Of a stretch of DNA of 64,000 nucleotides, positions 8,146 through 32,988 are shown piece by piece (positions within the stretch are counted from its first letter, which is position 1; every line of letters begins with the position of its first letter). A program made the position numbers and the translations under genes. The stretch comes from Candidatus Beckwithbacteria bacterium GW2011_GWC1_49_16 (GTDB lineage Bacteria; Patescibacteriota; Microgenomatia; UBA1400; CG1-02-47-37): assembly GCA_001029675.1 (NCBI GenBank), contig CP011210.1, positions 777,280 through 841,279 on the forward strand. Direction: 5' to 3'. The notes beneath the pieces were generated by a model, which worked only from the letters and a program-made list of their open reading frames with translations, was not told where the DNA came from and ran no database searches.

Positions 8146-9125
8146 GAGTCTTGGTCACCGGCGGTGCCGGCTACATCGGCTCGATCGTCTGTCGCCAGTT
8201 AACCCAAAAGGGTTTTGAAGTAGTGGTCTTGGACAGCCTGGAAAACGGCTCTCGCCAGGCGGCGGGCGGCTTGAAACTGGTTAAAGGCAAAACTCACGAC
8301 CAAGACTTGGTTAAAAAAACTTTGGCGCAAGAGAAGATCGAAGCAGTGATGCACTTCGCCGGCTACATTGCCATGGGCGAGTCGATGGAGAACCCAGCTA
8401 AATACTTTGACAACAATGTAGTGGGAGCGGTGGGGCTGTTTGAAGCCATGGCCGAAGCTGGCGTCACTAAAATAATTTTTTCTTCCACCGCCGGGGTTTA
8501 CGGCAATCCGGAACGGGTGCCGATCAAAGAAGAAGACTCTAAACTGCCGGAAAATCCCTACGGCGAGAGCAAGCTCATGGTAGAAAAAATGCTTGACTGG
8601 TATGACCGAATTCAGGGATTGCGCTCGATCAGCCTGCGCTATTTTAACGCCGCCGGCGCCGCTCTTGACGGCAGTTTGGGCGAAGCCCACCGGCCGGAGT
8701 CACACCTAATTCCCAACGTGATCCGGGCGGCGATGACTGGTGACGGCTTTAAACTTTACGGCAACGACTACCCCACCCCTGACGGCACTTGCATCAGAGA
8801 CTATATCCATGTTTTGGATCTGGCCGACGCCCATATTCTGGCCTTGAAAGCTTTGAGAGACGGCCACGAAACGGCGGTCTACAACGCCGGCACAGGCAAA
8901 GGCTATTCTAACCGGCAAGTGATCGACATGGTAGAAAAGGTGTCGGGTAAAAAGGTTAAGGTTGAAGTTCACCCCAGGAGGCCGGGAGACGCTAACGAAC
9001 TGGTAGCCGACTCAACTAAACTCCAAAAGGAATTTAACTGGAAGCCGAAATACTCGGACCTGAAAACGATCGTGGCCACTGCCTGGAAGTGGCACTCGAA
9101 ACATCCGGAGGGGTATTCGGGATGA
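8142..9125 (+). CDS. galE: UDP-glucose 4-epimerase
   Basis: Rossmann motif VTGGAGYIGS, YxxxK region and NAAGA motif. Length 327 aa. Confidence 0.85.
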   Translation: MRVLVTGGAGYIGSIVCRQLTQKGFEVVVLDSLENGSRQAAGGLKLVKGKTHDQDLVKKTLAQEKIEAVMHFAGYIAMGESMENPAKYFDNNVVGAVGLFEAMAEAGVTKIIFSSTAGVYGNPERVPIKEEDSKLPENPYGESKLMVEKMLDWYDRIQGLRSISLRYFNAAGAALDGSLGEAHRPESHLIPNVIRAAMTGDGFKLYGNDYPTPDGTCIRDYIHVLDLADAHILALKALRDGHETAVYNAGTGKGYSNRQVIDMVEKVSGKKVKVEVHPRRPGDANELVADSTKLQKEFNWKPKYSDLKTIVATAWKWHSKHPEGYSG

Positions 9126-9961
9126 TCCCCTCTTGGTTTTGGCTGGCGGCTGGGGCCGGAATTATCGGCAATGGGTTTAATTTTGTTAACCGGTTCAGCC
9201 TGCGGGGACAACAGGATTCCACGGCTTATGCTTGGTGGTTTGAGTTTTTAAGGCTGGTGGTATTCGGGACTTTGGCCATGTTTAACTTTCAGCTGGCGGT
9301 GAGTTCTAAAAGTTTATCGATGCTTGTTTCCCTGGGTCTGGTAGAGCTGGTGGCAATTTATTTGTATATGAAGATGCACGCTTTTACAGAACTATCGCTG
9401 TCGGCAATCATAGTCAGGTTAAGGCAGGTGTGGGTACTACTGGTGGCTTGGGTGCTGATAGGCGAAAGGTTAAATTTTACTGGCTATTTGGGAATTTTGA
9501 TTATCTTTACGGGTTTGGCGTTGGCTTTGTGGCAAAAAAATTTTAAGCCGGGTAAAGGCCTTAAGTTGGCGCTGGCATTCTCCATTGTTTCGGCGGTGAT
9601 GTGGGCGTTAATGAAGGGAGGGGCAGAGTTTGTTTCGACGCCGGTGCTGATTATGTTTTTATCTTGGCCTTCAGTGGTATTTCTGCCGCTGGTTATGAAA
9701 AACCCTGCCGGAAGAATTGTTGCCTTATGGCGGCAAAAGGTAAAAAACCTGTTACTGTCTGTTGGTAGTGACGCGGTAACGCTGTATTTAATGGCCCAAG
9801 CTTTAAGGCAAGGTCCGGTGAGTAAGGTTTTATCCGTGTCGCAGGGTATGTTGGTGCTGGCGATTTTGGCGGGAATTTTGTTTTTGGGAGAAAAAGAGCG
9901 GGCGTGGCAGAAATTGTTAGGGGGCCTGATTACCGTGGGCGGGGTGTGGCTGTTAGTGTGA
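9122..9961 (+). CDS. 10-TM membrane protein (DMT/EamA-like), paralog A
   Basis: Start MIPSW (ATGA overlap with galE stop) chosen by alignment to paralog B. The ORF track gives 9089. Confidence 0.5.
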   Translation: MIPSWFWLAAGAGIIGNGFNFVNRFSLRGQQDSTAYAWWFEFLRLVVFGTLAMFNFQLAVSSKSLSMLVSLGLVELVAIYLYMKMHAFTELSLSAIIVRLRQVWVLLVAWVLIGERLNFTGYLGILIIFTGLALALWQKNFKPGKGLKLALAFSIVSAVMWALMKGGAEFVSTPVLIMFLSWPSVVFLPLVMKNPAGRIVALWRQKVKNLLLSVGSDAVTLYLMAQALRQGPVSKVLSVSQGMLVLAILAGILFLGEKERAWQKLLGGLITVGGVWLLV

Positions 9962-9980: not shown

Positions 9981-10511
9981 ATGAAGACTACAATTAAACT
10001 AGCCAGCCTTAAAGACCTGAAAAAATATACCGATTTACTACAGCAAACATATCAGTCTGCCTACACTAATGAAAAGCTTGGCTTAACGGCTGATTGTTTC
10101 TCTAAAGAAATATTTGCCACCGATAACACTCAAGATTATTTAAAGTCTCATCTTATCAACAATCACAGCCAGAAAACCTGGCTTGCTTTTAAAGATCATG
10201 TGCTTGTTGGTTCCATTACCTGCATTCTTGAAAACGACGACGAAGCCGAGCTAACTGGCTTCTATGTACATCCAGACTATCAAGGACAAGGGGTCGGTAA
10301 AAAACTTTACCGCCAAGCGTTAGAATTTTCTGGGAACAAAGACTTCGTCCTTGATATTTATACTCACAATACAAAAACCGTTAAAATGTATGAGAAGTGG
10401 GGTTGGGTTTTAGATGTATCTCGTGGTGACAATGGCTATTTTTATAGACATTGGCCAGAATGGCCAAAAGGATTGAAAGCCAAGGCAATGTATATGAGGT
10501 TAAAACGATAA
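9981..10511 (+). CDS. GNAT family N-acetyltransferase
   Basis: Acetyl-CoA motif FYVHPDYQGQGVGKKL. AT-rich gene. Confidence 0.75.
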   Translation: MKTTIKLASLKDLKKYTDLLQQTYQSAYTNEKLGLTADCFSKEIFATDNTQDYLKSHLINNHSQKTWLAFKDHVLVGSITCILENDDEAELTGFYVHPDYQGQGVGKKLYRQALEFSGNKDFVLDIYTHNTKTVKMYEKWGWVLDVSRGDNGYFYRHWPEWPKGLKAKAMYMRLKR

Positions 10512-10518
10512 TATAGCT

Positions 10519-11352
10519 ATGCCAACGTGGGTGGTGATGGCGTTTGCGGGAGGGTTTTTGTCGAACCTGGCTTTTTTTGTCACCAGAAAAGCTTTGAAAG
10601 AAGAGGACCCGACGGCTTTCGGCTGGTGGTTTGAGGTGATGCGGCTGGCGGCTTTTAGCGCTTTGGCTTGGTTTAACTTTAAGCTTGAGCTAAGCCCGGC
10701 GGCATTTTTCTGGCTGGCGGCCTTGGGAGTGACGGAAATAGCGGCGATGTACTCTTTTGCCAAGATGCAGAGCTTGACGGAACTGTCGGTGGCCAGCATT
10801 GTGTCCCGCTTGCGGCTGGTGTGGGTGCCTTTAATCGCCTTGGCGGTTTTGGGAGAAAGACTGGCAGTAAGCGAATACCTGGGGATAGCTTTGTTGTTTT
10901 TGGGGTTGTCGGTGGTGGCCTCGCCCAGGAGAATCAGGAACGACTCGGGAATAAAGTACGCCCTGTTTTTTTCGGTGACGGCGGCGGTCAACTCGGTGCT
11001 GATGAAACGAGGTGCCGCTTTTGCCTCGACGCCGGTACTCTTGGCGGCGATGAGCCTGCCGGCCATCTTGGCTTTCCCGGCTTTAATGAAAAGCTCGAAA
11101 ATAAGAATTGCGGCCTCGTTTAAAAAGAGGATTAAGGCCAACCTGGTGTTTTTGGCGTTTAACGTGGTGTCGATGTATCTTTTCGTCGAGGCTTTGAGGG
11201 TCGGCCCTGCCAGTAAAGTGGTTGGTTTTTACCAAAGCATGCTGATTATAGCGGTGATTTTGGGAATTGTGGTCTTAAAAGAAAGAGAGCGGATTGTTAA
11301 AAAAGTCGCCGGAAGTTTGTTGACCCTGGTAGCCATTTGGCTACTGGTTTAG
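10519..11352 (+). CDS. 10-TM membrane protein (DMT/EamA-like), paralog B
   Basis: Clearly alignable to 9122..9961 (AFGWWFEVMRLAAF vs AYAWWFEFLRLVVF; GERL motif). Confidence 0.5.
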   Translation: MPTWVVMAFAGGFLSNLAFFVTRKALKEEDPTAFGWWFEVMRLAAFSALAWFNFKLELSPAAFFWLAALGVTEIAAMYSFAKMQSLTELSVASIVSRLRLVWVPLIALAVLGERLAVSEYLGIALLFLGLSVVASPRRIRNDSGIKYALFFSVTAAVNSVLMKRGAAFASTPVLLAAMSLPAILAFPALMKSSKIRIAASFKKRIKANLVFLAFNVVSMYLFVEALRVGPASKVVGFYQSMLIIAVILGIVVLKERERIVKKVAGSLLTLVAIWLLV

Positions 11353-11445
11353 ATTGGCTAGATAATATCATGTTAAGCTTGACATGTGTTTAACATAATG
11401 TTAACATGTTAAGTGTTTATATATATTTAACATGTTGTTAACATG
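11353..11445 (+). promoter_or_regulatory. AT-rich promoter region with repeated TTAACATGTT palindromes upstream of fic
   Basis: TTGACA at 11379-11384, TAACAT 17 nt downstream. Copies or half-sites of TTAACATG(TT) at about 11371, 11390, 11401-11412 (12-bp perfect palindrome), 11427-11436 and 11437-11444. Confidence 0.5.
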
Positions 11446-12831
11446 AATATGAAAAAACTTAAAAAGCTTAAATTGTCCCCACCGCTAAATTTCAAGTTAA
11501 GAAAACCCGACCTGAATAAAATTAACAGACAAAAGGTAATTAATGCCCTGGAAAAGAACCCGACCAAGTATAGAAAGATTTTGGAAAAAGCCAATGAGCC
11601 TCAATATCTTTACTGGACTAAGTTTAAGTATAAAATTCGAGATGATGTTTTAAGTCCAGAAGAACTGTGGTACTTGGTACGACAGTTTAGAAATATTTCA
11701 GCAACAGAGAGTCTTATAAAGGCCGAAAACAGCGATAACTTTAAATGGTTAAGATTGCCGTCTACCGAAGAATATCTACATTCAGTCGATATGATGGCCG
11801 GAGGGCAATTACTCCCCTATCCCAATATTCTTTCTCAATCTAATCAACAAACCTTTATTAGTCGAGGAATAATCGAAGAGGCGATTGCTTCCAGCCAACT
11901 GGAAGGAGCTCATACTACAAGAGCCGCGGCCAGGAAAATGATTATTGAAAAAAGAAGCCCTCGGAATGCGTCCGAGAGAATGATTCTTAATAATTATAAA
12001 GCAATAAATGCTATTGAGGAGAATTATAAAAACCAAGAACTTTCTCTAGATTTGCTATTTGAGCTACATCGAATCTTAACCAGAGACACTATTAATAAAA
12101 CTGAGCAAAATCGCTTGAGGGAAAACAGCGATGAAATAGTGGTTCAGGGCGAAATAGACCAAGAACAGTTTATTACTCACCTACCTCCAAGTGAAAATTT
12201 TGTTAGAGAAGAAATTAAAAGGCTAATCGACTACGCTAACGACCAAATGGGACAAAAGTTTACACATCCGATAACTAAGGCTATCTTTCTACATTTTTGG
12301 ATTGGGTATCTTCATCCTTTCACAGATGGCAACGGAAGGTTAGCCAGAGCCTTATTCTATTGGTATCTTTTGAAAAAGGGTTACTGGACATTCATGTTTT
12401 TACCCATTTCAACGGTAATTAAAAAATCCCCAAGCCAATATGCCCTAGCTTACATTTACAGCGAGCAAGATAATTTGGATATTACTTACTTTTACGATTT
12501 TCATATAAGAAAGGTTTTACAAGCGGTTGAAGATTTTAAGATATATTTAGGTTCAAAAATTAAAGAAAATCAAGAGGTAGATAAGATAATCAGTAAAAAA
12601 GTTACTTTAAATGAAAGGCAAAAACAGTTGGTCCATTATTTTATCTCTGATCCTAATCCTTCAACGACAGTTTCGTCCCACTCAACGCTAAATAATATTT
12701 CTCGTCAAACTGCGGCAAAGGACCTTAAGGTAATGGAGGCAGATAAGTTGCTGTACGCAAAACGGGAAGGAAAATATGTCCGTTACTACCCGGCAAAAAC
12801 CTTACTAGGCTTGTGGGGTGAAAGAAAATAA
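11443..12831 (+). CDS. fic: Fic family protein (class II, auto-inhibited) with C-terminal winged HTH
   Basis: Fic motif HPFTDGNGRLARA. Inhibitory helix motif SSQLEG ([ST]xxxE[GN]) N-terminal to the core. AT-rich. Confidence 0.8.
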   Translation: MNMKKLKKLKLSPPLNFKLRKPDLNKINRQKVINALEKNPTKYRKILEKANEPQYLYWTKFKYKIRDDVLSPEELWYLVRQFRNISATESLIKAENSDNFKWLRLPSTEEYLHSVDMMAGGQLLPYPNILSQSNQQTFISRGIIEEAIASSQLEGAHTTRAAARKMIIEKRSPRNASERMILNNYKAINAIEENYKNQELSLDLLFELHRILTRDTINKTEQNRLRENSDEIVVQGEIDQEQFITHLPPSENFVREEIKRLIDYANDQMGQKFTHPITKAIFLHFWIGYLHPFTDGNGRLARALFYWYLLKKGYWTFMFLPISTVIKKSPSQYALAYIYSEQDNLDITYFYDFHIRKVLQAVEDFKIYLGSKIKENQEVDKIISKKVTLNERQKQLVHYFISDPNPSTTVSSHSTLNNISRQTAAKDLKVMEADKLLYAKREGKYVRYYPAKTLLGLWGERK

Positions 12832-12849: not shown

Positions 12850-13461
12850 ATGGAGTTTGATAAGCTGGTAGTATCTTTTTTGGTCGATGAGGTGGTCGGC
12901 GGCTTTTTTGTCAACGTGCCGCCCGGGCACGTCGCCTGCATCCACGACCTCGGGCGGGGGGTATTAAAAAAAGTCTGGGGGCCGGGGCTGCACCTTAAAA
13001 TCCCCTTTTGGCAGAGGGCGAAGCTGTTTAACTCGCAAATCCTGGAATACTTAATCCGCCACGATTTTGATTTATCTCACAGCGAGTCTTTGGGCGACGA
13101 GGCGATTGTCAGCAAAACCGCCGACAAGCATAACCTTCAGGTGGAGGGATCGATACTGCTTAAAATCGACAAGAGCCGGGCCAACGAACTTTGGGAAACG
13201 ATCGGCGACGACTTTGTCTCCAAAATTGTCCGGCCGGTATCCCGAAGCCGGCTTCGCTCGGTACTATCGGAAGTGACGCTGGAACAGATTACTACTTACA
13301 GGACTCAAGTCGAAGAAAAAATTAAAAAAGAATTGAACCAGGTCTACGCTCAATCGGGAATTATCTGCGATGGGTTTTTACTAAGCGAAGTCAAAGAATT
13401 AGGCGATCTTGATAAAACTTCTGACGACAAGGTGCTGTTTTCTAAACAAAAGCAATCTTGA
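12850..13461 (+). CDS. SPFH/band-7 domain protein
   Basis: Prohibitin-like pattern LHLKIPF...ILLKID. 3' end overlaps lon 3' end convergently. Confidence 0.45.
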   Translation: MEFDKLVVSFLVDEVVGGFFVNVPPGHVACIHDLGRGVLKKVWGPGLHLKIPFWQRAKLFNSQILEYLIRHDFDLSHSESLGDEAIVSKTADKHNLQVEGSILLKIDKSRANELWETIGDDFVSKIVRPVSRSRLRSVLSEVTLEQITTYRTQVEEKIKKELNQVYAQSGIICDGFLLSEVKELGDLDKTSDDKVLFSKQKQS

Positions 13462-15796
13462 GGACTTGGTCTAGGTGGTCGACGAACCGGAAAGCAATGT
13501 CTTTTTTGACCAGGTCGGGAATTTCGGTGAGGTCTTTTTGGTTGTTTTTAGGCAGGATGACGGTTTTGATCCCGGCGCGGTGGGCGGCGATGACTTTTTC
13601 TTTGACGCCGCCTATCTCCAAAACCCGGCCGCGCAGGGTAATTTCGCCGGTCATGGCGACGTCTTTTTTAACTTTTCTTTCGGTTAGAGCCGAGATCAAG
13701 GCCGTCGCCATGGTGATGCCGGCCGACGGCCCGTCTTTGGGCACGGCGCCTTCGGGGACGTGGATGTGGACGTCAACTTTGGAGTAAAAGTTTTTATCGA
13801 GTTTGAGCGCTTGCCAGCGGGAACGGGCGTAGGAAACGGCGGCGCGGGCAGACTCCTTCATCACGTCGCCCAATTGACCGGTTAAGATGATCTTGCCGCT
13901 GCCGGGAATGATGGCCACTTCGACGAACAAAACGTCGCCGCCGGATTGGGTCCAAGCCAGCCCGGTAGACAAACCGACGTCGTCTTTTTTCTCGGCCAGC
14001 GGCGGGGTGAATTTCTCCGGACCGAGATAGTCAACCAGGGTTTTGGTGCCGATGGTAAAAGGCCCGCGGCGGTTGGCGGCAATTTTTTTGGCCACTTTGC
14101 GCATGATTTTACTGATTTCTCTCTCCAGGTTCCTGACGCCGGCTTCGCTGGTGTAAGAATAAATGATTTTTTTTAAGGTAGTGGGAGAAATTTTGATCTG
14201 GGATTTTTTCAGGCCGTTGCCCAAAAGGGTTTTTTTGATCAGGTATTTTTTGGCGATTTGTTCCTTGTCGTAGGCGGTGTAGCCGGAAAAGCGGATGACT
14301 TCTAACCGATCTTTCAGGGCCGGCGGGATGGTGTCTAAGACGTTGGCGGTGGTGATGAACATCACCTGTGATAAATCGAAAGGGACCTCGAGATAATGGT
14401 CGGAAAACTCGCGGTTTTGCTCCGGGTCGAGAGCCTCGAGTAATGCCGCCGAAGGGTCGCCTCTGAAGTCGGCGCCGACCTTGTCGATTTCGTCGAGCAT
14501 AAACACCGGGTTGTTGGTGCCGGCGTTTTTGATACCCTGGATGATACGGCCGGGCATGGAGCCGACGTAGGTGCGGCGGTGGCCGCGGATTTCGGCTTCG
14601 TCGCGGATGCCGCCCAAGGACATCTTGATAAACTTCCTGCCTAAGGCCCGGGCGATGGAACGGCCGATAGAGGTCTTACCGACTCCGGGCGGGCCGACGA
14701 AACAAAGGATGGTGGGACCCGCCGGGAGATCTTTTCGACCTTGGGCCAACTTTTTTAATTGCATCACGGCCAGATACTCGACGATTCGCTCTTTGACTTC
14801 CTTTAAAGCATAGTGGTCGTTTTCTAAAATAGTCTCGGCTCTTTTGATGGTGACTTTGTTGGGAGAAGCTTTGCTCCAGGGCAGATCGCAGAGCCATTCC
14901 AGGTAGGTCCTGATGTAGCCTGATTCGGGGTTGTAGGCGTGCATGTCGGAAAGACGTTTTAATTCTTTGAGGGCTTTTACGGTTACGTCTTTGGGCATGT
15001 GGGCCTTTTTGATGCGTTTTTTTAAGTCGACGGATTCTTTGCCCTCTTCTTGTTCGCCTAACTCCTTCTGAATGGTTTTAAGCCGCTCGCGAAGCACGGT
15101 TTCGCGCATGGACTTGTCGAACTTTTTCTGGGTTTTTGAGGCGATAGACCGCTCCAACTCCAAGATTTTTAATTCCCGGGAAAGATAGTCGGAGACCTCT
15201 TCGAGACGCCTTTTGACTTCGTAGGTTTCGAGTAACTTTTGCTTTTTGGCGCTTTCGATATCCAGATTGGTGGCGACTTGGTCAGCCAGCTCTGAAGAAG
15301 AAACGCCGCCCATGATGCGCATAAAAACCATGAAGTCGACTGACTTACCCATGTTGACGGCTTTTTTGAAGTTGGCGGAAACGAGTTTTTGGAGAGCGGA
15401 GATTTCGTCTGACTCCTCGACGACTTCGGGAATTTCTTGGACTTTGGCGACGAGGAAAGGCTCGGTGGCAGACAAAGCGTCTATCTTGACCCGAGCCATA
15501 CCTTTGACCAGGGCGTTAATTTCGCCGTTGGTTTTTAAAATCCGCTCGATGCTGCAGAGGGTGCCCACATGGTAGATGTCTTTGAGCCCGGGCCGGGCAA
15601 CGGTAGGATTTTTTTGGGTGACAAAAACTATAAGGCGGTCGGAACGAAAGGCGGCCTCGACGCCGGCGTTGGAGCGGGGGCGGCCAAAAGTCAAAACCGC
15701 CTCGGTGTGGGGAAAAACCACCCCTTCGCGCAAGGGCACCAAAGGCACGGTTTTCTCCGGCTTGGATTTATTTTGCGGACCCAAGAGTATCGCCAT
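13442..15796 (-). CDS. lon: ATP-dependent protease Lon (LonA)
   Basis: LON N-domain, Walker A GPPGVGKTS, catalytic Ser motif PKDGPSAGITMATAL. Confidence 0.9.
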   Translation of the reverse strand: MAILLGPQNKSKPEKTVPLVPLREGVVFPHTEAVLTFGRPRSNAGVEAAFRSDRLIVFVTQKNPTVARPGLKDIYHVGTLCSIERILKTNGEINALVKGMARVKIDALSATEPFLVAKVQEIPEVVEESDEISALQKLVSANFKKAVNMGKSVDFMVFMRIMGGVSSSELADQVATNLDIESAKKQKLLETYEVKRRLEEVSDYLSRELKILELERSIASKTQKKFDKSMRETVLRERLKTIQKELGEQEEGKESVDLKKRIKKAHMPKDVTVKALKELKRLSDMHAYNPESGYIRTYLEWLCDLPWSKASPNKVTIKRAETILENDHYALKEVKERIVEYLAVMQLKKLAQGRKDLPAGPTILCFVGPPGVGKTSIGRSIARALGRKFIKMSLGGIRDEAEIRGHRRTYVGSMPGRIIQGIKNAGTNNPVFMLDEIDKVGADFRGDPSAALLEALDPEQNREFSDHYLEVPFDLSQVMFITTANVLDTIPPALKDRLEVIRFSGYTAYDKEQIAKKYLIKKTLLGNGLKKSQIKISPTTLKKIIYSYTSEAGVRNLEREISKIMRKVAKKIAANRRGPFTIGTKTLVDYLGPEKFTPPLAEKKDDVGLSTGLAWTQSGGDVLFVEVAIIPGSGKIILTGQLGDVMKESARAAVSYARSRWQALKLDKNFYSKVDVHIHVPEGAVPKDGPSAGITMATALISALTERKVKKDVAMTGEITLRGRVLEIGGVKEKVIAAHRAGIKTVILPKNNQKDLTEIPDLVKKDIAFRFVDHLDQVLKIAFV

Positions 15797-28041: not shown

Positions 28042-31000
28042 CTAACCGAAGAAATCATCTCGTGGCGATGAATTTGCTCCTATCTTATCTATAAATTCCC
28101 TTATTAGGTTAATTCTTGTGCTCTTTCTACCGCGCTGCTTATTGAGATAAAACAGGTTACGAATTTGCACAAACCACTCCCAAGGAACTTCTAGTTTATT
28201 CGATACAAAAACGTTCAACAGCCTCTGAATATAGCTGGCGTCTGATTTTCTGCCTGACCAAGCCTGCTTGATAAATTCTTTCCCTAATTCTCTCCGAACT
28301 TGCTGGCGAATTTTTTGGATTTTCTCACTGTTTAAGATACTTTGATTATGTTCGCTAACCAAACTAATGAATCCGTCGAGAAACCCAACATAGTCTCCCT
28401 GGCGAAAAGTGTTAAAAACCTCAACTTCCTGTTTAGAAAACGAAAAGTCCGTAGGTAAATCGATTGCCCCCAAGGTTCCATCTTGGCTAATAATAAAGTT
28501 GCCGGGGTGAGGATCTTGAGGGAAGATATACTGCCCAACATCCACACCTACAGGCGTTTCAAAAAAAGAATCTACAAATCCTAAAACTATATGCAACGCC
28601 TTAAGGGTTGTTTTAATATCCTCGGATAAGTTATCCTGATTTTCTAGCCACTGATTAAAATTTTTAGAATCGAATGGTACTTTGTTTTTGGCTAAATAAG
28701 AAGATACTTGACGATTTTGCAGATACCGATTAAGCGTCGAACCGGCTAAATATTCTTCTACTCTAATATGATTGTCTGGGGTGGCAAATAGCGGCTTGGC
28801 GGTGATAATTGGCTTGTCGATTTTTTCAGATATAGCTTTAATCGCCTGGCGCAAGATAGCGCCCCATTGGGGTTTGTTATCTTTCAGATCTGCCTTGCTC
28901 CAATGTCGCGCCACTCCCAACACAATTTGGGCCAGCTGGGCGTGTTTTTTGGTCTGCTCGTTTCCGTGTTTCTCGGCGTACCGGAGGGCCGCTATGGTGC
29001 TATCGTAGGAAATATCAACAAAGGCAGCAGCGTTTGCCGTATACATTTTTAAGGCAGCGGTTTTGACTCCTAGCTTCTTGATTCCTTTGGGGGTTAAAGA
29101 GACTTTGTAGGCCGAAGCAAGGCTACCTCCTCCTAAAAATTCGTCTATTGTATCTAACATTTCTCCGACAAATAGGCTTAGAGAAGTTTCCGCATCACCA
29201 GATTTATCATCCTCTACCTCCTTATGGAGATTGAGCCAAAGCTTAAATTCATCGGTGGGCTGCATCCGATCAAAGGCGTTGCTTAACCTTTTGGCTAGCT
29301 TTGGCTCGAAATCGTATACCAGCTGGGCTATTTGCAGAGAGCGCACGAATAAACTACCCATTGATTCGATACCTTGAATAAAAGACTCTGTCCGGGGGGA
29401 AAGGCCGGATTGCTCGGCCGCCTCAACCTCCTGATATTTTTGAGTCAAGTTAAAATTACTGGTATATGCTTCAAGCCATTGATGCAGGCGCCTCAAGTGA
29501 CTAGTGGATGCTTGATATAATTTTGATAGAGCCTCCAGGCCAGTTTTTCCTCTTAAAATACTGCCTATTTCTACTATGTTATCCCTTGATTCGCTGAATA
29601 AATTTGGTAAATAGCTGTATTCTGGCTTTCCTGAAAAAGCGCTGCCCCTTTTGTAAAATTCTTTCTTAATTCTGGTGTAGTTAATTGCCTGCAAATCCAG
29701 CCCGGAAAAAAGCAACGGTCCTAAAAGTTGGGATAAACCTAACCCTACCAATGAAGGTTTACCCTCGATAATTAATCCTTTGGCAACTTGCTTGACGAAG
29801 TCGTCTTCAATATTGAATGACTTGACTACGAGATCGGCCAACCACTGTCTCTTCTCGGTAGTAGCAAGCAAACCATCTGAATCAAGAAGCAAGCGCATCA
29901 TCAGACCCTTTTTAGCGCCCTCTGATAATCCTTGGAGTCCTTGAATTACATCTTTGACTGTGCGGAAACGATCACGTTCTCTAAAAGGATCGATAATTAC
30001 TTTTCTGAGCTGTCGGTCAAACTGGATTCCGCTGCTTGGCTTGGTGTCGTCGGTTTTAATCTTGGCTATAAAAGTACCCAACCAGGTTTTAGCCAAATCG
30101 GTGGTATATTTGAGCTTTGATAGCGGATCGTCTGCGATAGTACCCACCACCCACTGCTTATCCTTAAAGAGCGATACCACTAGGTCTCCGATGGCCAAAG
30201 CATCTAACTTCCAGGAATTTTCGTCTCCGCGGAGCACGGCCATTCGCTCCAAGCCGATTTGATCAAAAAAGTACTTGGCGTCGTCATAATGCTTCACCTG
30301 TTTCATCAGCACTAAAAGATCGCTATAGGAAAATTTATGGTAATTATCTAGAAAATAATCCATTCGGCTTCTTATTTTTTCTGGGTTTGACTCGGCGGAG
30401 ATAATATAGGCCAGACGCAGGTCATGAATTTTTCGACTTAGATCAGGGCTGGCGTCCGTCATGTCAATCCCACCACCAATACCACTGACGATATTCTCAA
30501 ATGCTTGAATTGCCGCTGGTAGGACTTCGGAGTCAATATCCTGATGCAAAAAGTCAATAAACTTTCCTTCAAAGAAGGGGTAGAAAATAAGTCCGGCAAG
30601 ATTTGATGAAAATATTTTTTTGGAACGATAGTGAGAGTGCATGCCGAGGTAATGAGCGTGATCGATGCGTTCGTTGTAGTCAGCCAAAGCTTGGTCTAAG
30701 GCGACAAAGGATTCAATTTGATAGGTGTGCTCCAGTTTCTTCTGAAAAGAAAGGTGAAGTGGGGAAGTAGCCAGTTTTTCTCCCATATATAAAGTTTGAT
30801 CACCAAACCAATAAGAAAAGTTAAGTACATGCCAGATTTGATCGTTAAGTGAAAGTCGGTCAAAGTCACTGCCGTAATGCTTTTCCATATAGTGTAACGA
30901 ATCGACCATTACCTGCCTTTTCTCTTCATATGCTTTAAAGGACGGATATGTATCTACTTCTAAATTTGCAATAAATGCTTCAAGGCGCATTTTCAATGAA

Positions 31001-32988
31001 CTGGGAAGCACTTTGCCCTTTTCATCAAGACTAAATAAAGTGGACGTCTCACGCTCTGTTTCAATTTGAGGGTCAAAATCAAGTCCGGTAAAATCGGCTG
31101 ATCTTACTTGCTCTCGAAGATAAGTAATGATGGGCGCATAGTGTTTTCTAATCTCAGTTGCAAGCGGGTGAGATTCTGCTAACTGAATGTTGCTATACAG
31201 CAATCTTCTTAAATTACTGAATTTTCTATATAAAACGTGTACTTCTTTCTCAGAGAAAATACTGTTGAGTATTCTAGATACCTGTTCTAAGCTAAAAAAA
31301 GCTGGCTCGGACTCAAGCTGCTCTTTATAGAGATTAACTCCGAATACTTCTAGAAAAATAGGCTCCAGCTGGTCTTTGGTTAGTTGGGTGACTCGGTCAG
31401 AATCAATGTCGCCTTTTTTGTTTCTAAAGATTTGATGAGTGCCAAGGGCGTTTTCGAGAAGCAACCATGTATCAGATGCGGGGCTATACCCTGTTTTGGC
31501 GATTTTTTGAAGTAGTTGTCTTAACTCCTTTTGGTCAACTCGTTGTGTTTTTGGATCAAATAATCTAGCCGCAATATATGTAGAAATAATGGGGTCTACA
31601 TGCCACCAGTATTTGCCGAATTGCTCGTCTTTATCCTGTCTTGCGAATTCAACATACGCCTCAATAATCTCGAGAAAAGTGTTTTCTTTTATAGCTACAC
31701 CCTGGTTAATCAAGAAAGTTATCTGGCCCTCGCAGGCAGCGTCAATGTCAGTCTGTCGGGCATACAAACCATCCCAGTCGCCTGGCCAATTGTCTCGGGC
31801 ATAGACTCCGAAAATTCTATAGTTCATTCCTCTCCATTGTTTTGGATCAATTGTGTGTCCGTGTTTAAGAATCTTGAGGTAGTCTTGGTAAGTATGGTTG
31901 GAAAAGGCATGCTGGCGCCATCTCTCATTCCCCCACCACATCGTCAAAAGAAGGCTGTCTTGGTCGAGAGGTAATAAGTCTACGTCTGTAGTACGTTTTC
32001 GAAGAAATTCAGTAAGCGCTTGTTGAAAAGCCTCACTATCTTTAAGATCCCCCCTGCTAAAACACCCGTTATCCAGTAGTTGGCATAAATCTTGAGAATG
32101 GAGCTTATCTAGTAATTCAGCCGCGTTTCCTTCAACCAGTCCCTCGGGCCACATTTCGGCAATTTCGCGGTTTGTTGGCTTAATTTCTTGTTTATAGAAA
32201 CTAATGGTTTCGCCGTCGGGTAAAGCTACCTTGTCCAAGGGAATAATGTCGGCGCTACTGAATTTCCGATTGATAAATTGGTGCTCGATGAGAGGAAGGC
32301 TGGCTCGCATCAGGGGTGATTGATGGCCTAAGTCGGTTCTTTGGTTTAAGCTTTCTTTAGCTTGGCGTTCAAAAAAATCATGGGCGACTAAAGTATTTAT
32401 TCCGACTTTATCAAGCAACCGGGAAACCTCGGCATCCGCCCCAAGCTCATGGACCCACTCTGTCGAGATGCTTTCTCGAGAAACATAGGTACCATTGATT
32501 AAATGGGCAACTTCGTGGGCAATAATACCCAAAGCGGCACTAAAAGAACCGGAGCGGTTTATCAAGGATTGAGAAAGAACTATGGTTCCGTCAGGAAGAA
32601 TAAATCCTTTTTCGGTTAACCCCCGGTTAAGAATAACTACCTGAACGTCGCCTTTGTAAACCTCACCTTGCAACATTTTCTTGGCATATTGACCTAATAT
32701 CCTGGTTCTTTCAGAACCGCTTTCTGTTTCATGGGTAACAGCTAAATATTTTTGGGTTTGATTAGTGAAATCGTTGTTTGCTTTAATTTCTTGTTCTGTT
32801 AACGTTCTGTCCGGGTAAGCGTCTGAAAGTATAAATAATGGTTTTAAAGTTATATCGGCTTCCCCCCGAAATTCCCCAGGCATGTCTGACACGGAATAAA
32901 GTGGTTCTGGCTTAGCCTCAACCTTGCGACCACCAAATAAATCTCCAAGATCCAATCCTGCCGTCTTTAGAGTAGCTACTTCCCCCAT
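28042..32988 (-). CDS. giant multidomain protein: N-terminal HExxH zincin-like domain, long helical middle, C-terminal ABC1/UbiB-like atypical kinase domain
   Basis: IIAHEVAHL...E zincin motif near aa 170. C-terminal ABC1 motifs (LASAYKV, GVKTAALKM, DPHPGNFII, AIDL). AT-rich relative to flanks. Confidence 0.6.
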   Translation of the reverse strand: MGEVATLKTAGLDLGDLFGGRKVEAKPEPLYSVSDMPGEFRGEADITLKPLFILSDAYPDRTLTEQEIKANNDFTNQTQKYLAVTHETESGSERTRILGQYAKKMLQGEVYKGDVQVVILNRGLTEKGFILPDGTIVLSQSLINRSGSFSAALGIIAHEVAHLINGTYVSRESISTEWVHELGADAEVSRLLDKVGINTLVAHDFFERQAKESLNQRTDLGHQSPLMRASLPLIEHQFINRKFSSADIIPLDKVALPDGETISFYKQEIKPTNREIAEMWPEGLVEGNAAELLDKLHSQDLCQLLDNGCFSRGDLKDSEAFQQALTEFLRKRTTDVDLLPLDQDSLLLTMWWGNERWRQHAFSNHTYQDYLKILKHGHTIDPKQWRGMNYRIFGVYARDNWPGDWDGLYARQTDIDAACEGQITFLINQGVAIKENTFLEIIEAYVEFARQDKDEQFGKYWWHVDPIISTYIAARLFDPKTQRVDQKELRQLLQKIAKTGYSPASDTWLLLENALGTHQIFRNKKGDIDSDRVTQLTKDQLEPIFLEVFGVNLYKEQLESEPAFFSLEQVSRILNSIFSEKEVHVLYRKFSNLRRLLYSNIQLAESHPLATEIRKHYAPIITYLREQVRSADFTGLDFDPQIETERETSTLFSLDEKGKVLPSSLKMRLEAFIANLEVDTYPSFKAYEEKRQVMVDSLHYMEKHYGSDFDRLSLNDQIWHVLNFSYWFGDQTLYMGEKLATSPLHLSFQKKLEHTYQIESFVALDQALADYNERIDHAHYLGMHSHYRSKKIFSSNLAGLIFYPFFEGKFIDFLHQDIDSEVLPAAIQAFENIVSGIGGGIDMTDASPDLSRKIHDLRLAYIISAESNPEKIRSRMDYFLDNYHKFSYSDLLVLMKQVKHYDDAKYFFDQIGLERMAVLRGDENSWKLDALAIGDLVVSLFKDKQWVVGTIADDPLSKLKYTTDLAKTWLGTFIAKIKTDDTKPSSGIQFDRQLRKVIIDPFRERDRFRTVKDVIQGLQGLSEGAKKGLMMRLLLDSDGLLATTEKRQWLADLVVKSFNIEDDFVKQVAKGLIIEGKPSLVGLGLSQLLGPLLFSGLDLQAINYTRIKKEFYKRGSAFSGKPEYSYLPNLFSESRDNIVEIGSILRGKTGLEALSKLYQASTSHLRRLHQWLEAYTSNFNLTQKYQEVEAAEQSGLSPRTESFIQGIESMGSLFVRSLQIAQLVYDFEPKLAKRLSNAFDRMQPTDEFKLWLNLHKEVEDDKSGDAETSLSLFVGEMLDTIDEFLGGGSLASAYKVSLTPKGIKKLGVKTAALKMYTANAAAFVDISYDSTIAALRYAEKHGNEQTKKHAQLAQIVLGVARHWSKADLKDNKPQWGAILRQAIKAISEKIDKPIITAKPLFATPDNHIRVEEYLAGSTLNRYLQNRQVSSYLAKNKVPFDSKNFNQWLENQDNLSEDIKTTLKALHIVLGFVDSFFETPVGVDVGQYIFPQDPHPGNFIISQDGTLGAIDLPTDFSFSKQEVEVFNTFRQGDYVGFLDGFISLVSEHNQSILNSEKIQKIRQQVRRELGKEFIKQAWSGRKSDASYIQRLLNVFVSNKLEVPWEWFVQIRNLFYLNKQRGRKSTRINLIREFIDKIGANSSPRDDFFG

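Follow-up and report, generated by a model that had tools for sequence, protein, structure and literature searches.

The 64-kb window analysed here, a stretch of contig CP011210.1 of Candidatus Beckwithbacteria bacterium GW2011_GWC1_49_16, holds at positions 11353-12831 a one-gene cassette of about 1.5 kb that is likely to control itself: a Fic protein of the SoFic/CccR/CbFic2 type (class II), whose own winged helix-turn-helix (wHTH) would repress its own promoter through a helically phased array of repeats. Fic enzymes occur widely as toxins and regulators. Among anti-phage systems made of a single gene SoFic is a common one, and how it is controlled is poorly understood. To our knowledge, CccR is the sole relative with demonstrated self-repression, which works through one inverted repeat, and for SoFic binding to the promoter has been demonstrated. 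What is new here is the arrangement: six or seven sites follow each other at one helical turn and form two triplet blocks 37 bp apart. Negative autoregulation, in which the winged helix of the protein itself occludes the promoter, appears to be the best-supported explanation, because the array is kept with the gene, its units are phased by 10-11 bp, the repeat covaries with residues of the protein and no partner gene is conserved. DNA binding, repression, enzyme target and defence role of this protein are alike inferred.

The phased array in front of the Fic gene

The region upstream of the Fic open reading frame (ORF) is as AT-rich as the preliminary description had stated. All five exact copies of TTAACATG in the whole window, against 1.56 expected, are confined to 77 bp (11369-11445) directly upstream of the Fic ORF, at 11369 (-), 11401 (+), 11405 (-), 11427 (+) and 11438 (+), and a perfect palindrome shares this stretch. 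Two copies with one mismatch, TTGACATG at 11379, which holds the -35 element, and TTAACATA at 11390, complete the 11-bp register. With one mismatch allowed, the 200-bp upstream stretch contains 8 copies versus 3-4 in shuffles; the rest of the window has 7 scattered matches to TTAACATGT with one mismatch, which form no cluster and reveal no other target. A repeat finder returned two 30-bp blocks that are 80% identical and lie 37 bp apart from start to start, each made of three 11-bp units. The elements of the region are as follows.

11353..11448, + strand: predicted promoter-operator region, 96 bp, 24% GC
11369..11376, - strand: inverted repeat copy CATGTTAA, just upstream of the -35 and additional to the two blocks
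11379..11408, + strand: predicted operator block 1, units at 11379 (TTGACATG), 11390 (TTAACATA) and 11401 (TTAACATG)
11379..11384, + strand: predicted -35 element TTGACA, inside the first repeat unit and invariant in close relatives
11399..11407, + strand: predicted extended -10 element TGTTAACAT, inside the third repeat unit
11401..11412, no strand: perfect palindrome of 12 bp, TTAACATGTTAA, in which one forward and one inverted copy have a common ACATGT core
11416..11445, + strand: predicted operator block 2, units at 11416 (degenerate, TTTATATA), 11427 and 11438 (both TTAACATG), spanning the leader to the start codon
11449..12831, + strand: Fic ORF, 460 aa; the alternative start at 11443 falls within the last repeat

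The 12-bp palindrome and its further copies had been described before as an array of palindromes. The clustering of the repeats is real, but they are mainly direct repeats with a phase of 11 bp, which form two triplet blocks. The best promoter-like site of the region consists of TTGACA, a spacer of 17 bp and TAACAT (11402-11407) with TG before it, matching the consensus at 10 of 12 positions, and the copy that was said to lie over the -10 element indeed contains this TAACAT. Taken together, the repeats cover both promoter elements and their spacer as well as the leader and the start codon. As for the copy placed over the start codon, it does overlap the ATG at 11443, from which the mechanical call runs (11443..12831, + strand, 462 aa), but the true start is more likely the ATG at 11449 (MKKLKK...), which gives 460 aa and aligns with the MKKPK start of a relative (P0003). 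The ATG at 11443 would then be part of the last repeat, 6 nt before the conserved start. Residue numbers throughout refer to the 462-aa version. Because each repeat contains an ATG, the leader holds this in-frame ATG as well as an upstream ORF of four codons (ATG TTG TTA ACA TGA, 11432-11446), and the ORF calls of three relatives likewise start with M-x-M-K-K.

Conservation of the array and its covariation with the winged helix

The array was followed in a family sample of 85 non-identical upstream regions, whose Fic proteins are 24-79% identical to ours and come from bacteria of the candidate phyla radiation, Omnitrophota, Bacteroidota, Nitrospirota, Planctomycetota, Methanosarcinales, Methanoregula, Woesearchaeota, Micrarchaeota and others. 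A metagenome scan with the single protein had yielded 11 loci only, because its peptide patterns were over-specific. In four close relatives (73-79% identity) the Fic gene has the same array in front of it, while the gene neighbourhoods are unrelated (kinase, radical SAM and PIN-Phd genes; GatCAB and FemAB; GNAT; AbiEii and EamA). In all four, the upstream design is CTTGACA, a 17-bp spacer, TGTTAACATGTTAA and three TTAACATGT(A/G)T units in 11-bp steps up to the start codon, and alignment with the window leaves CTTGACA, TG-TAACAT and the repeat cores invariant.

In the wider sample the most repeated 8-mer outnumbers every one of five shuffles in 62 of the 85 regions, and adjacent copies on the same strand are 10 or 11 bp apart in 116 of 327 cases versus about 5 in shuffles. 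Natural sequence gives the same picture: steps of 10 or 11 bp average 1.45 per region in 76 Fic upstream regions and 0.02 in 130 control segments of 203 bp from the same loci (p about 1e-24). Arrays exceed the shuffles in 60 of 77 relatives at least 33% identical to our protein and in 3 of 9 below 33%. Usually two or three direct copies precede an inverted one; this layout is often doubled, around TTGACA in bacteria, and archaea have it too. The repeat sequence itself is lineage-specific, with TTAACATG in the clade of the window, GTACATG or TAACAT and TAGGCAAT or TTGCACA in others, and further ATGTATCATAT, TTGACATGTAG, TAGGTGTAATA, ATAGGTA(C/T)AAT, TACTAATT, CTACCAAT and TTTCCAAT. Among the 85 loci no conserved neighbour (partner, antitoxin or regulator) was found, and Fic is the sole constant.

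If the protein binds its own array, the reading head should be the C-terminal winged helix that the preliminary description had assigned to it, and which is well seen here.

12604..12798, + strand: C-terminal winged helix, from AlphaFold2 (AF2) secondary structure, profile matches and alignment to the wHTH of CbFic2 (8cil)
12697..12738, + strand: recognition helix I419-SRQTAAKDLKVM-E432; R421 and Q422 are the best columns for the upstream repeat class

In the AF2 model this domain comprises helices 391-402 and 421-433, followed by a beta-hairpin (437-450). The profile built from the final 80 residues of the protein matches ArsR (2oqg, E-value (E) 4e-4), SlyA/MarR and, weakly, AspA (E 0.09-0.15), with SRQ falling at the start of the recognition helix in this alignment; family members match the Pfam models HTH_11 (11/17), HTH_DeoR (10/17) and SoFic-like_C (10/17).

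The repeat class follows the residues at positions 421-422. YQ goes with TACTAAT in 11 loci from bacteria and archaea (Omnitrophota, Nitrospirota, Bacteroidota, Methanosarcinales, Woesearchaeota and Micrarchaeota), of which ten have 3-7 exact copies and one (L020) a single copy, and none has TACCAAT. YD goes with TACCAAT, in 4 exact copies each and with no TACTAAT, so that cross-hits between YQ and YD, that is, occurrences of the repeat of one locus in the upstream region of the other, are zero. Similarly, TAACAT(G) is the repeat of the RQ loci, among them one relative (L007) at an overall identity of 44%, and RR and KM are paired with TAGGCAA and TAGGTA(T/C)A, respectively. Simple descent does not explain the split between YQ and YD, because the overall identity from group to group (37-56%) matches that within YQ (34-95%). 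Among pairs that share less than 45% identity outside the wHTH, the mean number of cross-hits is 4.0 with a common dipeptide and 0.42 with different ones (permutation p about 5e-4). Finally, an unbiased scan of all alignment columns against repeat class ranked R421, Q422, Y445 and V446 first and A425 seventh. R421 and Q422 are at the start of the recognition helix and Y445 and V446 in the second wing strand, the pattern that one would expect for repeats read by the winged helix of the Fic protein itself.

Proposed autoregulation and competing explanations

The nearest precedent for such a circuit is CccR of Yersinia pseudotuberculosis, which represses its own promoter via repeats at the -35 and -10 (footprint AGATAATCAT-N26-ATGATAATCT; promoter activity rises 3.3-fold upon cccR deletion) and is toxic through AMPylation (PMC9755527). 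CccR is a top structural match and shares with our protein the class II Fic fold, the inhibitory helix in cis, the C-terminal HTH and repeats over -35 and -10. The two are nonetheless only 17-19% identical in the structural alignment, and CccR lacks the N-terminal domain of about 115 aa; it has one pair of 10-bp inverted repeats 26 bp apart, whereas here six or seven mostly direct sites follow each other in 11-bp steps; and it is an effector of a type VI secretion system, for which this locus offers no context. SoFic (Shewanella oneidensis SO_4266), as a dimer, binds upstream of its own gene, in the first 100 bp, and it AMPylates EF-Tu (bioRxiv 10.64898/2026.07.09.737422); SoFic has also been reported as a stand-alone anti-phage gene (Millman et al., bioRxiv 10.1101/2022.05.11.491447). 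SoFic resembles our protein in its Fic plus wHTH build and in standing alone, but is about 19% identical, and the N-terminal domain is extra in the protein described here. For E. coli Sofic a small downstream antitoxin, AS1, has been reported (PMC12249575); no AS1-like small ORF follows the gene in the window. CbFic2 of Coxiella burnetii, a secreted effector targeting histone H3 (PMC10628234), is the best match in the Protein Data Bank (PDB) by sequence (E 7.5e-13, aa 112-431) and by fold, at 21% identity. It likewise couples Fic to a DeoR-like wHTH and binds DNA, but in its case binding of random DNA stimulates catalysis and no operator is known (PMC10628234). The multi-site operator bound by the protein's own HTH, as first suspected, finds strong comparative support in the conserved array, the covariation and the CccR and SoFic precedents, short of proof.

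We propose that the Fic gene is transcribed from its own sigma-70-type promoter, TTGACA-17-TGTTAACAT, and that the winged helix of its product would bind TTAACATGT-type sites, which, being 11 bp or one helical turn apart, would place the bound proteins on one face of the DNA. The two triplet blocks would extend over both promoter elements (-35 and -10), the region of the transcription start and the start codon, and their cooperative occupancy would block RNA polymerase, leading to a steep negative feedback that might hold a potentially toxic enzyme at a low, fixed level. In the protein itself, E154 of the SSQLEG helix would keep the catalytic site (H291) shut until a trigger arrives; by analogy with SoFic, infection by a phage would probably serve as this trigger and result in AMPylation of a host protein that is essential. 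The two-block layout suggests either cooperative side-by-side binding on one face or bridging between the blocks. As a second possibility, DNA binding might also gate catalysis, as in CbFic2. Short repeats of 10-12 bp, one per turn and in two blocks around a promoter, are known from ParR/parC of plasmid R1, TubR/tubC and archaeal AspA, partition repressors with a small DNA-binding fold that bind cooperatively and repress their own promoter. The Fic array would work alike, but homology is limited to the weak AspA match, there are no partition genes here and the binder would be a 460-aa enzyme.

Several points weigh against autoregulation through the array. SoFic, CccR and CbFic2 act as two-fold symmetric dimers, suited to inverted repeats, and the reading of head-to-tail repeats in 11-bp steps is not readily explained by such a dimer. 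CbFic2 binds random DNA with high affinity (PMC10628234), therefore the wHTH of a Fic protein need not be sequence-specific. Within the window, decay has turned the first unit of block 2 into TTTATATA, where relatives have an intact TTAACATGT. WP_136085682, a subfamily member of 32% identity on the Klebsiella pneumoniae plasmid pKp_SB617_1 (NZ_CP084826.1, L107:2420-2467), has the N-terminal domain and the recognition helix VSYNTARKDF, and right before its start codon lies a perfect 13-bp inverted repeat, TTAACTCAATTTT-CGTC-AAAATTGAGTTAA, with no phased repeats. The upstream sequence of an Aeromonas member, read by eye only, shows no obvious array either. Therefore, the phased layout is not universal. 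Conversely, two viral contigs have 3-5 copies of TTAACATGT in 11-bp steps (L105:2683-2715 of IMGVR_UViG_GVMAG-M-3300023179-32_000001 and L106:9590-9650 of IMGVR_UViG_3300030390_000646) and no Fic relative in the stretches examined, and here another protein may use the same site. The array on the second contig lies just beyond a 403-aa ORF that is portal-like as judged by eye. Additionally, the covariation test is partly confounded by phylogeny, though YQ and YD overlap in overall identity, and the motif classes of the column scan are crude, with AT-rich motifs merged, for example.

The viral arrays raise the question of whether the repeats serve some other trans-acting factor, be it a regulator of the host, a protein of the nucleoid or one from a phage, with the link to Fic due only to a common mobile cassette, and it is also true that AT-rich acquired genes are often bound by silencing proteins. 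We regard this as very improbable: the lineage-specific repeat is best predicted by Fic's own recognition helix and wing residues, helix-repeat pairs recur across bacteria and archaea, domains without such a common regulator, and neither a second gene kept beside Fic in the 85 loci nor a further motif cluster in the window points to another player. It is harder to set aside the idea that the array is mainly a platform for enzyme control, on which side-by-side binding leads to oligomerisation that switches AMPylation or deAMPylation on or off, repression being a by-product. CbFic2 dimerises upon DNA binding, which also stimulates its activity (PMC10628234). Dimerisation of SoFic is required for both AMPylation and DNA binding. 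Moreover, phased iterons resemble those of ParR/parC and TubR/tubC filaments, and AspA, to which the C-terminus has its weak profile match, spreads along DNA. A single array per genome, however, holds only few molecules, sites exactly on the -35, the -10 and the start codon are the simplest signature of repression, and CccR's regulatory and toxic functions can be separated, so that we consider a platform as the main role unlikely.

That the repeats act in RNA, through leader structure or upstream ATGs, or are mere low-complexity AT-rich sequence or promoter-like hexamers, seems hardly credible. Every TTAACATG does contain an ATG, block 2 probably lies within the leader, and the motif is similar to TTGACA and to a weak -10. 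Yet the RNA-level version is largely refuted by an Rfam search of the region that gave no match and by a leader that folds no better than shuffles (z = -0.10), and as to low complexity, the natural control segments from the same loci have no 10-11-bp arrays, and in most lineages the repeats are found upstream of the -35 too and bear no likeness to promoter hexamers. A bolder proposal, to which we give a rather small chance, is that the phased repeats are a nucleation track for a short Fic filament, assembled side by side like those of ParR, TubR and AspA and gating AMPylation or deAMPylation, that loss of the track or competition for it in a phage infection would release or activate the toxin, and that two to four residues (421, 422, 445, 446) form a simple, transferable code for a 7-9-bp site (YQ for TACTAAT, YD for TACCAAT, RQ for TAACATG), gene and operator being exchanged together between bacteria and archaea.

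Returning to autoregulation, the data indicate that there is a large subfamily (416 clusters at 50% identity), distributed over archaea, ultra-small bacteria and many further bacterial phyla, in which the gene brings along a helically phased operator with several sites. The operator sequence would be predictable from a small number of winged-helix residues, which leads to direct testable predictions, and the family might represent a natural set of orthogonal repressor-operator pairs. With this pattern, it could also be simple to locate promoters and true start codons for such genes in metagenomes. The parts worth following up are the family-wide operator rule and the correspondence between residue and site, and the Klebsiella plasmid member WP_136085682, from a cultured organism, would be a convenient test case.

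The Fic protein, its kin and its surroundings

More than 5,000 database proteins match the protein. The nearest are full-length, about 455 aa, and belong to candidate-phyla-radiation bacteria, among them a Candidatus Shapirobacteria protein at 74% identity, and conservation among relatives extends over the whole length. Its AF2 model (predicted local distance difference test (pLDDT) 84.6, predicted template modelling score 0.84) consists of a confident N-terminal domain (aa 11-120), the Fic core and the C-terminal winged helix. The features upstream of the winged helix are listed here.

11473..11817, + strand: N-terminal domain (aa 11-125), subfamily-specific, about 115 aa, confident in the full-length AF2 model
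11890..11907, + strand: inhibitory motif SSQLEG (S150-S-Q-L-E154-G155), fitting (S/T)xxxE(G/N), in cis before the Fic core
12313..12348, + strand: Fic active-site motif H291-PFTDGNGRLA-R302 (HPFTDGNGRLAR), fitting HxFx(D/E)GNGRxxR

Both motifs had been picked out from the letters alone, as a HPFTDGNGR core and as a sign of class II auto-inhibition, and both are confirmed. The active-site columns are invariant in an alignment of 30 relatives, and the Pfam Fic model (PF02661) matches aa 200-309 at 63.7 bits against a cut-off of 24 (E 3e-17); the Fic_N match is weak, at 22.3 bits below its cut-off of 26.7. The inhibitory motif is also invariant in the 30 relatives, and the model has a helix at 132-152. 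By its sequence, the protein, a predicted AMP-transferase, is a class II Fic with the inhibitory helix in cis (class as defined by Engel et al. 2012, as summarised in PMC9755527).

The N-terminal domain appears specific to this Fic subfamily. Its profile recovers the 416 clusters mentioned above, always at the N-terminus, in proteins that measure 430-470 aa where full-length. A profile of aa 1-128 against the PDB gave nothing (best E 0.04, clearly spurious), the Foldseek search of the domain no match better than E 1.8, and the domain modelled alone by AF2 is mediocre (pLDDT 69.5). A role as a second winged helix and specificity determinant is unsupported, since the columns of the domain do not lead in the association scan. 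DUF4172, the region of the N-terminal dimerisation helix on which DNA binding depends in CccR-type proteins, has no Pfam match in this protein, and the 8cil alignment starts at aa 112.

The best solved relatives, all Fic, are CbFic2 (8cil), Dde_2494 (4rgl), SoFic (3eqx, 3zcn), a Mycobacterium marinum Fic (7cb8) and CccR (7xux), and a winged helix at the C-terminus is documented for CbFic2 (PMC10628234), CccR (PMC9755527) and SoFic (bioRxiv 10.64898/2026.07.09.737422). The PADLOC SoFic model (PDLC03963), for which PADLOC gives no curated cut-off, matches aa 131-455 with E 2.5e-42 and 143.5 bits over model positions 47-357 of 361; the NCBIfam SoFic equivalog NF046030 gives 40.3 bits, below its cut-off of 550. 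The preliminary description had pointed to FicT/FicA and Doc for comparison, and here the result is negative. Class I FicT/FicA and Doc/Phd do share the Fido fold and a toxin checked by an inhibitory helix or antitoxin. In a FicT/FicA system a separate small antitoxin gene bears the inhibitory motif, and such a system can be rejected with this motif in cis and no partner gene kept in the 85 loci. Doc has an active site of the NKR rather than the NGR type and a Phd partner; the GNGR active site and the lack of a partner gene here reject it as well. The gene belongs, as far as its sequence tells, to the SoFic/CccR type.

The base composition of the Fic gene is far below that of both neighbours, as had been noticed at the outset: its ORF has a GC content of 0.364, lower than any other 1.4-kb stretch in the window (mean 0.491, standard deviation 0.039), compared to 0.518 for the EamA gene before it and 0.485 for the Band_7 gene behind it. 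The dip begins right behind the stop codon of EamA (11350-11352; gene assigned by Pfam match) and ends at the Band_7 gene, a gene of host GC whose ORF starts 18 bp past the Fic stop. A hairpin marks the left edge of this low-GC cassette.

11326..11347, + strand: terminator-like hairpin, 9-pair stem followed by TTTAGATTGG, at the end of the EamA gene

The same tendency runs through the family: 70 of 78 related loci have a Fic gene of lower GC than its flanks, the median difference being 5.8 points. Relatives are found on plasmids of Klebsiella, Aeromonas and Vibrio. With its low GC (0.36 versus 0.49) supporting acquisition, the cassette was probably acquired horizontally, and the suggestion of an acquired AMPylation or toxin-like module stands on the GC dip, the variable context and the PADLOC match. 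Direct or inverted repeats flanking the cassette, as ends of a mobile element, were sought and none were found. A phage-borne gene can be rejected, relatives being rare in viral contigs (5 in 2.9 million). In two relatives Fic adjoins a PIN / PhdYeFM toxin-antitoxin pair (L081, 5530-6199) or AbiEii (L087, 3351-4013), neighbours that fit a defence or mobile-gene neighbourhood. The case for a SoFic-type anti-phage defence role, based on low GC and on toxin-antitoxin and Abi genes beside some relatives, is circumstantial.

Among the neighbouring genes, the Band_7/SPFH gene (12850-13461, + strand) and a convergent Lon protease gene (13442-15796, - strand) overlap by 20 bp at their 3' ends (13442-13461). 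On the other side, a GNAT acetyltransferase ORF with a GC of 0.382 (9981-10511, + strand) lies between two EamA-family transporter genes (9089-9961 and 10519-11352) with a GC of 0.48-0.52, and this low-GC ORF beside the Fic cassette may be a second single-gene insertion. A tie to the GNAT genes beside three relatives (L084-L086) was considered and rejected, there being no specific relationship between them. Farther away, a single ORF of 1648 aa (28042-32988, - strand) has a GC below 0.40 near 30300, the sole stretch of the window besides the Fic region to fall below that value.

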